From: a virus
Taxonomy: Duplodnaviria > Heunggongvirae > Uroviricota > Caudoviricetes
Length of the DNA: 15,933 bases
Reading direction: 5' to 3' (one strand)
IMG/VR virus record: IMGVR_UViG_2667527666_000007
Part shown: positions 1 to 3,000 of the stretch, piece by piece
How the letters are laid out: each line of letters opens with the position of its first letter
How positions within the stretch are numbered: the first letter of the stretch is position 1
Program-made: the position numbers

Positions 1-3000
1 ATGAGCAGAGCACTTAACAAACTGAGCGATACACAGCTGAGGAAAATCAACGGCACACCTGCCCAAAAAACAGCCTTTCTTAATGACGGTGGAAACCTGA
101 GCGTCAGGCATTCAACCAGTGGCCTTTTAACCTGGTATTTCACTTACAGGGCCGGAACGGGAAGGGGGGCACCACCGGAACGCATTAAGCTGGGAAATTA
201 TCCTGATCTGAGCCTGAAATCAGCCAGGGAAAAAGCCGCCCAGTGTCGCGCATGGCTGGCAGAGGGGAAAAATCCACGTCATGAGCTTAATTACACCGTA
301 CAGGAAGCGTTAAAGCCGGTAACGGTTGGCGATGCGCTCACCTACTGGCTTGAGTCGTACGCAAAGGAAAACCGCGTGGATTATGCCGCCCTGAAAAAGC
401 GCCTTAATAATCACGTAATACAGCACATTGGTGCTATGCCGCTGGATAAATGCGAGCTACGGCACTGGCTGGCCTGTTTTGACCAGGTGGCAAAGCGAAC
501 GCCTGTTACTGCCGGATTCTTGCTACAGACGTGCAAACAGGCGCTTAAGTTCTGCCGGAGGCGGCGCTATGCAATCAGCAACGTTCTTGATGATATGAGT
601 GTGGCGGACGTTGGGAAAAAACCGGATATAAGCGAGCGTGTCTTAAGCACCAAAGAACTGGGCGAATTATTGCAGGCACTGGACAAAAAAATATTCTCCC
701 CCTATTACATCGCGTTAATCCGCCTCCTGATTGTGTTCGGATGCCGGACGGTAGAACTGAGGTTATCGGAGATCAGCGAGTGGGATTTTACCGAAATGCT
801 CTGGACCGTGCCGAAAGAACACAGCAAAACGAAGGTGGCAATATTCCGGCCCATACCGGAAGCAATACTGCCGTTCGTCACGCAGCTGGTGGAGCAGAAC
901 AGGCACACGGGCTTATTGCTGGGGGAAGTGAAACAGGAAACAAGCGTGTCGCAGTACGGCAGATTAGCGCACAGGAGGCTAAATCACCCTCACTGGTCAC
1001 TACATGACATCCGGCGCACCTTTACAACGATGCTGAGCGATTTAGGCGTGGATCCTCACGTCGTGGAGCAGCTTACAGGCCACCAGATGCCAGGAATGCA
1101 GCGAGTTTATAATCATTCCCGTTATCTGGATGCTAAACGCAATGCGCTGGATATGTGGATGGAGCGGTTAGGGATACTGGCGGGAACACATGAAAACGTA
1201 ACCGCACTACCAGCAGCCAGAAGAAAATAATTTTTTTCGTGTTTTTTCAGTATGCGCATACTGGATAAGCACACAGATACAACGGCGAACAATGTGAAAC
1301 AACGTGGAACAACCACGAACAAGAGGCGAAAAAGTACACAGGTTTATAAGTGACTGATTTTATTTGTGTGACTGTTTTTTTATACATTAGCGAATAACGC
1401 TTTAACGCGTGAGAAAAAAGGCATGAAACAATATTTTATGCCTTTGTATTAACATGAATTTAAAAGATTTTATTCTTACTGTTTCATTTTCTGTAAATCA
1501 TACATCCTCAATATTTGCCATTCATCACTCTAGCGGGAACAATACGACACAATAAGACACCTGATGACTCTTTAAGAAACGAAAGGGGGGCAATAGTGTT
1601 AAGCACTGATCGGTTTATACGTGAAAAAGAATGCGAAAAACTAACCGGCCTTAGCCGTACGTGTCGCTACCGCCTGGAAAAGGCCGGACAATTCCCATCA
1701 CGTCGTAAACTTGGCGGTCGTTCCGTTGGCTGGTCTTTATCCGAGGTTCTGGCCTGGAAGGATAGCTGCAAGGCAGTTCATTAATCACGCTGGCGGTACG
1801 CAGCCGCCACACATCAATCATCTGAACACAGAGCTATAACCATGAAGATTGAATATACGCCAGAACGTAGGCGGGGATTCGTTCGCCCTGGTGAAACTGA
1901 AAAACAACAAAATTGGGGTTTTTCAGGCATAAAAAAAGCGGCCCCGAAATGGAGCCGCCTTTCTGAACAGATAACCCGCTGCGCCGTTTGTGTGTGTGAT
2001 CCCAAACATAAGAACGGCAATGATAGTCGCTATCAGTCTGGTTCAGTTCGTTGCCATACCTGCAATGAGCGCTTTTCCCTGTATTCTTTAAGGAATTGCT
2101 CAAGGGCAAAAGCACATGGCGCGAATCTTTCTGATTCATGCTCTATCTTTCTGCGCCGTCTTTTCCGTGCCGGTGATAATGTTTTGGTCAATTCTTTATC
2201 GGTCATTGTGTTGTCCTGCATAGCAATGCGCCGTAATACCTCACACCACGGCGCTGATAGTTTTTATCCTTTGGGTTCTATGCCGCGTTGCTGTAATTCT
2301 TTGCGGAGAACGCGTTTAATCCAAGTGGCTAAAGATGTGTCGCCATCGGCCTTAGCTGCTTCTTCTAGCTGCGCTCTGAAGTCTTCCGGTAATCGCATTT
2401 GGTATGGAGGCGAACGTTTTTCTAATGGTGTTGACATGGTAATTACCCTTCATTACTATACCTACATGGTAATTACCATTGTACTTGCCATTACACAAAA
2501 ATCAACGCCCCGCAGTGCTGGGAACACATACGGGGCGTCTAACCAACAACGTAAACTAGGAGCCGTTATGGTTGCCGTAAATCATATACCACACCTTGTA
2601 CACACACAAACGGCCTTTGTGTGGCGTTTTCTGGCACTGAGTGCCGGAGAATCTCAAATCATCCACGTAACCGCCTGGACGGAACGCGAAGCGCGTAGCC
2701 GTTGCCCGTCCGGTTGTGTTGCTGTATTCGCCGCCCGTATTCGTCAGGGGGTGTGCCATGCCTGACATGACCAATTACCAGTACCTGATTAATCAGCATT
2801 TTAACTGTGAGCATGATATTGCTAAAAAGGTTTATTCCGCTGCGGATGGGGCTACTGACAATATATCAATGGCTGTTTCGTCAATTGGTAGCCTGATGTG
2901 GTATGCGTCAGAAAATAAGGAATATGACGAAAAGGCCATGCGCATTGATATGGGTAATATCGGTTTGTTACTGGCAATGCTTGGACAGTTTAATATTTCG

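Follow-up and report, generated by a model that had tools for sequence, protein, structure and literature searches.

We describe a predicted repressor system in a stretch of Escherichia coli DNA (15,933 nt, IMG/VR record IMGVR_UViG_2667527666_000007; hereafter the window, to which all coordinates refer) that by gene content, as read from Pfam matches, is a capsid-forming phage-inducible chromosomal island (cf-PICI) of 15.9 kb. The system consists of rhh, a minus-strand gene for a small Arc-like ribbon-helix-helix (RHH) protein, and two palindromes at its 5′ end, beyond which a rightward operon leads from an icd-like gene to a primase-helicase gene. We consider it likely from the sequence that the rhh protein represses both P_R, the predicted promoter of this operon, and its own gene through the two palindromes. 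A preliminary description had proposed an autoregulated RHH repressor whose operators also lie in the promoter of the replication genes, and this gains support at the sequence level from the linkage of sites and gene and from the conserved overlap of operators and promoter. We infer that the protein may thereby have a role in keeping the satellite quiescent. The features concerned are as follows.

2264-2437, minus strand: rhh, Arc-like RHH gene, predicted repressor; open reading frame (ORF) of 57 aa with an ATG start, MSTPLEKRSPPYQMRLPEDFRAQLEEAAKADGDTSLATWIKRVLRKELQQRGIEPKG
2434-2447, no strand: O1, proximal predicted operator; core 2438-2447, in the P_R spacer and over the stretch from the rhh Shine-Dalgarno sequence to the ATG
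2464-2479, no strand: O2, distal predicted operator; core 2468-2477, over the predicted starts of P_R and P_L
2431-2459, plus strand: P_R, predicted rightward promoter of the icd-like/primase operon; −35 TTGACA at 2431-2436, 17-bp spacer, −10 TACTAT at 2454-2459
2478-2505, minus strand: P_L, predicted rhh promoter; −35 TTGATT at 2505-2500, 16-bp spacer, −10 TACAAT at 2483-2478
2257-2502, no strand: exchangeable cassette of rhh, both operators and both promoters, delimited by alignment with E. coli JNEC-KY177 (L002)

The sequence ACATGGTAATTACC occurs exactly twice in the window, at 2434-2447 and 2464-2477, with a start-to-start distance of 30 bp. Its 10-bp core, GGTAATTACC, is a perfect palindrome (2438-2447 and 2468-2477), and around the distal core the perfect symmetry widens to 14 bp (ATGGTAATTACCAT, 2466-2479). 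With at most one mismatch, the core has three matches in the window where 0.38 are expected, a number that none of 200 shuffles reached. The two exact copies 30 bp apart had been correctly described, but their placement directly upstream of the gene does not hold for the proximal one, whose first four bases overlap the rhh start codon (CAT, 2435-2437); the O1 core runs from the base beside the ATG into the Shine-Dalgarno sequence AAGGG (2446-2450, minus strand). We retrieved 69 genomic loci of rhh homologues. Across more than 20 genera, some 60 loci have the sites at −10 and about −40 from the ATG, and in nearly all of these the proximal 10-bp palindrome ends directly at the start codon. The distance between distal and proximal site is 27-34 bp across loci, mostly 30-31 bp, and the distal site is often less perfect, for example GGTCGTTACC or GGTCATTACC. 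One near-operator with a single mismatch, CGTAATTACC, was seen at 6401-6410. Located where the ORF 6029-6421 ends, with a terminator-like hairpin (6430-6450) some 20 bp further on, it is probably a chance match and not a third operator.

By scanning 1750-2800 for the promoter consensus we identified two sites, P_R and P_L, with scores of 10/12 and 9/12 and predicted starts near 2464-2466 and, within O2, near 2470-2474. O1 fills the spacer of P_R, and O2 is situated between both −10 elements and over both predicted starts, which are a few bases apart. The operators had been envisaged in divergent promoters; their overlap with the rightward promoter is borne out, but P_R and P_L are not back to back, being arranged face to face and overlapping. 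The overlap of P_R and operator is conserved across genera. In about 40 of 52 distinct loci a perfect TTGACA arises in the same register from rhh codons 1-3 (ATG TCA A..), followed at 17-18 bp by a −10-like hexamer; of these 52 loci, 46 use TCA for Ser2 and 51 have A as the first base of codon 3. This dual-coding constraint on the first three codons is best explained by a functional rightward promoter, the predicted P_R, directed towards the icd-like and primase genes. On the other strand most loci of the GGTAATTACC type have TACAAT, TAAAAT or TATAAT immediately next to the distal operator. We also note that the predicted 5′ end of the P_R mRNA (AUGGUAAUUACCAUUGUACUUGCCAU, 2466-2491, plus strand) can form a hairpin containing the O2 sequence.

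The protein might instead autoregulate only rhh and the gene behind it, orf57, and so be an accessory regulator, with the replication operon under another promoter, such as that of alpA alone. In keeping with this, P_R is a consensus prediction, AlpA alone suffices for induction in published islands (PMC6092414), and rhh sits in the interval between alpA and the replication genes that Mageeney et al. called the "dynamic zone" of Gram-negative PICIs, a slot with many alternative contents (PMC10111431). However, a −35/−10 pair pointing away from rhh at the same spacing in different genera, together with the codon usage it imposes, would be left unaccounted for, as would the position of the best conserved operator, O1, within the P_R spacer. 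We regard an exclusively autoregulatory role as unlikely.

Four independent lines, namely position, co-variation, cassette exchange and a reverse search, lead us to assign the palindromes as the predicted operators of the rhh protein. Besides the fixed position described above, four operator classes follow four protein sub-lineages, with one hybrid locus, L033 from Pasteurellaceae, as the exception.

GGTAATTACC (distal site often GGTCGTTACC): protein strands QYQM, PYQM and PFQM
GGTATATACC: protein strand QFPM
TGTAATTACA: protein strands QYQI and QYQL
GTGTAATTACAC: protein strand PFQF

We do not claim the M/I/L residue of QYQxRL as a determinant of specificity; it aligns with the core position L12 of Arc. 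Sites and gene are also exchanged together. The sequence of E. coli JNEC-KY177 matches the window without a difference as far as 2256 and from about 2503 onwards, and between these points it carries a small YlcI/YnfO regulator of 59 aa with different repeats, GTGCGATTCA, in three copies, while alpA, int and primase are unchanged. In other E. coli satellites a YlcI/YnfO allele of 101 aa occupies the same slot. In the reverse direction, we searched 2.9 million IMG/VR viral contigs for a pair of GGTAATTACC cores separated by 16-24 bp and obtained 24 contigs. In 22 of these the twin site directly abuts the start codon of an rhh homologue, and in the other two it falls in coding tandem repeats of unrelated proteins; none of the 24 has it in a bona fide phage regulatory region.

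These observations also bear on the possibility that the palindromes serve AlpA, the integrase, a helper-phage protein or, as iterons, a replication origin, or that the main targets of the RHH protein lie in the helper phage. Binding of the palindromes by the rhh protein is a prediction, and regulators directed at the helper, such as CapR, are common in satellites (PMC10111431). Yet the sites vary with the RHH sub-lineage and are swapped with rhh while alpA, int and primase stay in place; apart from the two coincidences in coding repeats, the twin site is found in IMG/VR solely beside RHH homologues; and the likely origin is elsewhere, 3′ of the primase gene. It is improbable that another factor is the true ligand or that the helper phage holds the principal targets.

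The assignment of the protein to the Arc-type RHH class, made earlier from the sequence, is probably correct. In a profile check, its residues 6-55 matched PHROG 228 ("Arc-like repressor") with E=1.5e-6. Pfam Arc (PF03869) gave E=0.038 for the window protein (14.3 bits, below the cut-off of 20.4) and was matched by 18 of 41 family members, with a best E of 1.5e-4. Residues 14-51 matched NCBIfam YlcI_YnfO_N (NF041551) with E=0.0014 (18.7 bits against a cut-off of 30), which suggests that the protein is a distant relative of the YlcI/YnfO family and not a member. hhalign paired RSPPYQMRLPEDF with KMPQFNLRWPREV of P22 Arc (E=6e-4, probability 28%). The AlphaFold2 model of the monomer, with a predicted local distance difference test score of 76, has extended residues 1-17, a helix at 18-31, a turn (DGDT) and a second helix at 36-50, and as modelled it has the layout of the RHH superfamily, in which an N-terminal strand alternating between polar and hydrophobic residues precedes two helices linked by a short turn of the G-x-S/T/N type. 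At least 40 of the top 50 Foldseek matches in the PDB were RHH proteins, among them Arc, CopA, ORF56, NikR, ParD, VapB, MazE9 and AtaR, every match having an E-value above 1. A search of PDB sequences with the family profile returned designed helical repeat proteins as its top matches, which we set aside as an artefact of helix-loop-helix composition; the sole relevant match was AmrZ (E=0.61).

Leftward of rhh, the unit ends with a second small gene and a terminator.

2033-2206, minus strand: orf57, small basic protein 3′ of rhh, function unassigned; E. coli and Shigella only
1927-1963, minus strand: intrinsic terminator of the leftward rhh-orf57 unit; hairpin and seven-U run, dG −22.4, z −3.3

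The plus-strand fold of the terminator DNA is poor (z −0.7). The basic ORF at 2033-2206, which had been suggested as the toxin of a pair with rhh as antitoxin, does exist and is probably co-transcribed with rhh. It is a real, lineage-restricted gene: its homologues form 36 clusters, exclusively from E. coli or Shigella, with in-frame indels and a conserved core, ESERFAPCAFALE.FLKEY. Its position is kept whichever regulator allele lies upstream. It belongs to PHROG 21027 (unknown function), and its AlphaFold2 model is a disordered basic N-terminus with a single long helix. PADLOC assigned no defence family to rhh, orf57 or the icd-like gene, nor to orf106, the gene that follows the latter. A type II toxin-antitoxin operon with the palindromes as its operator would fit the common orientation of the two genes, their distance of 57 nt and their shared terminator, the automatic name "HicB family antitoxin" that homologues bear in some databases, and the frequency of RHH antitoxins among the fold matches. 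However, more than 20 genera have rhh but neither orf57 nor any conserved ORF downstream of it in the same orientation, orf57 remains where a YlcI/YnfO allele has taken the place of the rhh cassette, orf57 has neither a toxin or defence family match nor a toxin fold, and with seven residues after its second helix the rhh protein lacks a toxin-binding C-terminal extension. The pairing proposed earlier is not supported, and the restricted range of orf57, the cassette swap and the absent toxin family matches largely refute a toxin-antitoxin reading, which we judge very improbable.

The 57-aa minus-strand ORF itself is present where it had been reported. Among 5.8 billion proteins searched we found 93 clusters of homologues, nearly all of 56-58 aa and mostly of 57 aa; over the aligned part their identity to the window protein ranges between 98% and the mid-50s, and it is about 64% for full-length matches. 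They come from Enterobacterales, Pasteurellaceae, Aeromonadales and Gilliamella, in more than 20 genera that include Escherichia, Salmonella, Klebsiella, Yersinia, Serratia, Xenorhabdus, Photorhabdus, Pantoea, Pectobacterium, Pasteurella, Aeromonas and Oceanimonas. In an alignment of 41 family members 17 residues are invariant. Across 19 ungapped orthologues, differences from the window numbered 231, 143 and 536 at codon positions 1, 2 and 3, counts that do not by themselves separate the strands, as the third positions coincide in both frames. The decision for the minus strand is based on stops in orthologues and on the order of first- and second-position variability: the second codon positions of the minus frame are the least variable, and the minus ORF of 57 codons is intact in 19 of 19 loci, whereas the plus-strand frame (a 307-aa ORF, 1842-2765) has stops in 7 of the 19. 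These comparisons indicate that rhh is a real gene and that the plus frame is open merely by accident of the antisense frame.

The gene had been called unannotated, and this extends to public records, since RefSeq has no rhh coding sequence in E. coli genomes with a near-identical copy. Instead, the RefSeq (PGAP) annotation draws an "Icd-like protein" pseudogene on the plus strand over orf57 and rhh, and neither of the two minus-strand genes is listed (2441-3034 in L001, 2067-2660 in L072; the corresponding frame in the window is 1842-2765, plus strand). For every near-identical E. coli copy sampled (13 plus L001, O157:H7 strains included) the annotation omits rhh and places the spurious pseudogene over it, which exposes a systematic annotation error. 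That the plus-strand frame is nevertheless the true gene and the minus ORF spurious, as its being open across the region in the window and its RefSeq annotation might suggest, is scarcely credible and is refuted by the orthologue stops and codon-position variability, the Icd-like model moreover matching only the last 65 residues of the 307-aa ORF while the minus-strand protein has profile matches of its own.

A second candidate regulator lies over the start of the icd-like gene.

2496-2573, minus strand (2573 to 2496): predicted cis-antisense RNA of about 78 nt; two stem-loops, covariation
2581-2609, minus strand: predicted promoter of the antisense RNA; −35 TTGTGT at 2609-2604, 17-bp spacer, −10 TATGAT at 2586-2581, start at an A (2573)

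The RNA is complementary to the Shine-Dalgarno sequence and start codon of the icd-like gene and presents the anti-Shine-Dalgarno CCUC in the loop of stem-loop 1, while stem-loop 2 (2538-2505) and a U-run (2504-2496) form an intrinsic terminator (dG −24.9, z −3.9). The two-hairpin fold is found in nearly all of 35 loci. In the alignment 85% of cells are paired, against 37-50% in slid controls; pairs changed on both sides number 18 against 9.8 in shuffles, with 18 reached in none of 500, and 11 of the 17 pairs of the 2538-2505 hairpin show compensatory change. The strand sense follows from 89 G-U cells valid only for a minus-strand RNA against 6 A-C cells. A covariance model (R1) detects a single copy in each locus, on the expected strand, and does so in loci outside its training set as well, namely an IncR plasmid, the Pasteurella element Pmp8 and E. 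coli islands of the YlcI/YnfO type, with two copies in a locus that has two cassettes in tandem; the RNA adjoins both RHH57 and YlcI/YnfO alleles. No Rfam match was obtained for the whole window at E<=1 or for 2430-2640 at E<=10, the C4 and isrK models being unmatched. In 40 distinct loci, anchored on the complement of the start codon, the T, A and T of the −10 sequence TAnnnT are invariant (100%), and 85% have the G that makes an extended −10. This TAnnnT stands 8 nt before an invariant A and at third-codon positions of first genes with differing N-termini. The −35 sequence in the window is weak, scoring under the cut-off of the promoter consensus scan.

Taken together, we propose the following model. 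Dimers of the rhh protein, or dimers of dimers, would insert their N-terminal beta-ribbon (SPPYQMRLP) into both GGTAATTACC palindromes. Occupancy of O1 and O2 would occlude P_R and turn the replication operon off, while occupancy of O2 would limit P_L and give negative autoregulation of rhh. As P_R looks stronger and O1 is better conserved, low levels of repressor would probably switch off P_R before P_L and free the latter from promoter competition, with higher levels filling O2 and closing P_L, in the manner of Arc/Mnt at Pant/Pmnt of P22 (PMC2724298). The antisense RNA, acting on the Shine-Dalgarno sequence and start codon of the icd-like gene, could provide a second, post-transcriptional lock. 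Induction by a helper phage via AlpA would have to override this lock. AlpA-dependent induction has been published for related islands, with AlpA expression switched on by the helper phage (PMC6092414). By way of speculation, the most economical route would be for rightward transcription of the alpA unit to continue across orf57 and rhh, antisense to both, until it reaches the operon, for which the P4 late promoter offers a parallel (PMC10111431).

Several points weigh against a repressor of this kind. The island EcCICFT073 was induced by over-expression of AlpA alone (PMC6092414), so that a repressor is not formally required, and only 454 of 5426 complete E. coli genomes have the rhh allele or module. 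At the protein level, the window protein is below the curated cut-offs of both Pfam Arc and NCBIfam YlcI_YnfO_N, the Foldseek E-values all exceed 1 for a very small domain, and the monomer model lacks the beta-strand, which a single chain cannot form. At the DNA level, the counts for operator-protein co-variation are not phylogenetically independent, P_R and P_L are consensus predictions, and that of P_L is not uniform across sub-lineages, less so in loci of the TGTAATTACA type.

The module was also encountered in other settings. In L073 (2249-3890, E. coli SD134209) two regulatory cassettes stand in tandem, the first with RHH57, its operators, the antisense RNA and a truncated first gene, and the second with the 101-aa YlcI/YnfO gene, an antisense RNA and the icd-like gene; the arrangement looks like a recombination scar between immunity-type modules. 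The K. pneumoniae IncR plasmid p56661-46.1 (L075, 2487-3150) carries an RHH homologue of about 63% identity with the antisense RNA (81.7 bits) and a divergent small gene, and about 100 further IncR and other plasmids of 40-60 kb carry the module, with IS26 and IS903B as flanks. In the Pasteurella "phage" Pmp8 (L076, OR544139.1, 15.3 kb) we found an integrase remnant, an alpA-like gene, an RHH homologue (79%), primase and terminase, in the same synteny as the window. Pmp8 is probably a satellite of the cf-PICI type that was packaged and sequenced.

The remaining genes of the left part of the window are listed below.

1-1230: tyrosine integrase
1596-1784: AlpA
2568-2765, plus strand: icd-like gene, first gene of the rightward operon; NCBIfam phage_ICD_like, E=5.8e-18
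2758-3078, plus strand: ORF with no known function (orf106), rightward operon
3085-3384, plus strand: DUF4222, rightward operon
3366-5198, plus strand: primase-helicase (D5_N, Pox_D5, DUF5906)

From the icd-like gene to the primase-helicase gene the operon genes abut or overlap one another. They are followed by genes for SSB, major capsid protein, prohead protease, portal, HNH, TerS and TerL. Tail and lysis ORFs are absent from the 15.9-kb window, the end of which is chromosomal phoQ-like sequence. This composition fits the definition of a cf-PICI as an element with int, alpA, primase and its own capsid and packaging genes, without tail and lysis genes (10.1101/2022.09.08.507074; PMC10085698). 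Just 3′ of the primase-helicase gene, an imperfect long inverted repeat with short repeats of the GTTCAC/GTGAAC type (5283-5372), which came to light solely via a chance miRNA match in the Rfam scan, is probably the replication origin of the island.

In the founding paper on Gram-negative PICIs the global repressor was called unclear and AlpA was described as the activator (PMC6092414), in agreement with the earlier remark that these elements are generally described without a dedicated repressor. Our literature search found nothing tying an RHH or Arc protein, or an antisense RNA, to Gram-negative PICIs, and no published function for YlcI/YnfO proteins. The rhh gene with its defined predicted operators and the antisense RNA is a widely conserved candidate for this missing repressor. 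We suggest, more tentatively, that the cassette and the antisense RNA might form a general maintenance or immunity switch of Gram-negative PICIs and cf-PICIs, complete with allelic immunity groups and an AlpA override, a generalisation that we hold to be possible rather than probable. If it were true, RHH and YlcI/YnfO alleles with private operators would define satellite immunity groups in the manner of the cI alleles of lambdoid phages, and AlpA-driven transcription arriving from the left, antisense through rhh into the replication operon, would override the switch. The alleles of the slot would sort satellites by sequence into regulatory compatibility groups, which matter for satellite-helper specificity and for engineered PICI vectors.

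The closest protein counterpart is Arc of the P22 immI region, where it is encoded with Mnt. Both are small RHH proteins with an N-terminal arm and strand (MPQFNLRWP in Arc, SPQYQMRLP in the rhh family), with an operator inside a promoter and, as with Arc on Pant and Pmnt, one repressor for two overlapping opposed promoters (PMC2724298). However, Arc is transcribed with ant from the promoter that it represses, whereas rhh points away from the operon it is predicted to regulate. Arc has a single operator of 21 bp, bound by a tetramer at TAGA boxes, in contrast to the two palindromes of 10-14 bp, about 30 bp apart, at rhh. The first three rhh codons, moreover, contain the −35 element of the regulated promoter, and the host element is a phage satellite.

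Plasmid copy control pairs a repressor with a countertranscript, CopG with RNA II in pMV158 and CopB with CopA in plasmid R1. The arrangement in the window resembles these in having a predicted RHH repressor on the promoter of a replication operon and a short antisense RNA with a loop at the downstream translation start region. It differs in that copG is co-transcribed with repB while rhh is opposed to the operon, in that the antisense target is an icd-like leader gene ahead of the primase-helicase gene, and in that the element is integrative and helper-dependent, although the module is also found on IncR plasmids. CopG itself is an RHH repressor of the rep promoter (PMC2724298).

Two further comparisons are with repressors at the same place in Gram-positive PICIs and with RNA immunity in phages. 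The Stl proteins are much larger, are not known to be of the RHH type and are lifted by binding a helper-phage protein. Like rhh, the Stl/Rpr genes of Gram-positive PICIs (SaPIs) lie between int and the replication module with opposite transcription (PMC6092414); no anti-repressor partner is known for rhh, and induction of Gram-negative PICIs is described as AlpA-dependent. Control by P4 CI RNA/seqA and by P1/P7 c4 RNA on the icd ribosome-binding site has been reported for some Gram-negative PICIs via Rfam C4/isrK matches (PMC10111431). There too a small RNA controls the leader of an operon starting with an icd-like gene, but the RNA described here is, from the orientation of its G-U pairs, predicted to be cis-antisense from the opposite strand, has no Rfam C4/isrK match and is coupled to a predicted protein repressor. 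Nearest in position are the YlcI/YnfO proteins (NF041551), which share the slot in otherwise near-identical E. coli satellites and have weak profile similarity to the rhh protein, but which differ in sequence (59 or 101 aa) and in their upstream repeats.

The protein-operator system is of the textbook kind known from Arc, Mnt and CopG. What is new is the uncharacterised and largely unannotated rhh family with its fixed place in Gram-negative phage satellites, the −35 element of the target promoter inside the start region of the repressor's own gene, and the pairing with a cis-antisense RNA.

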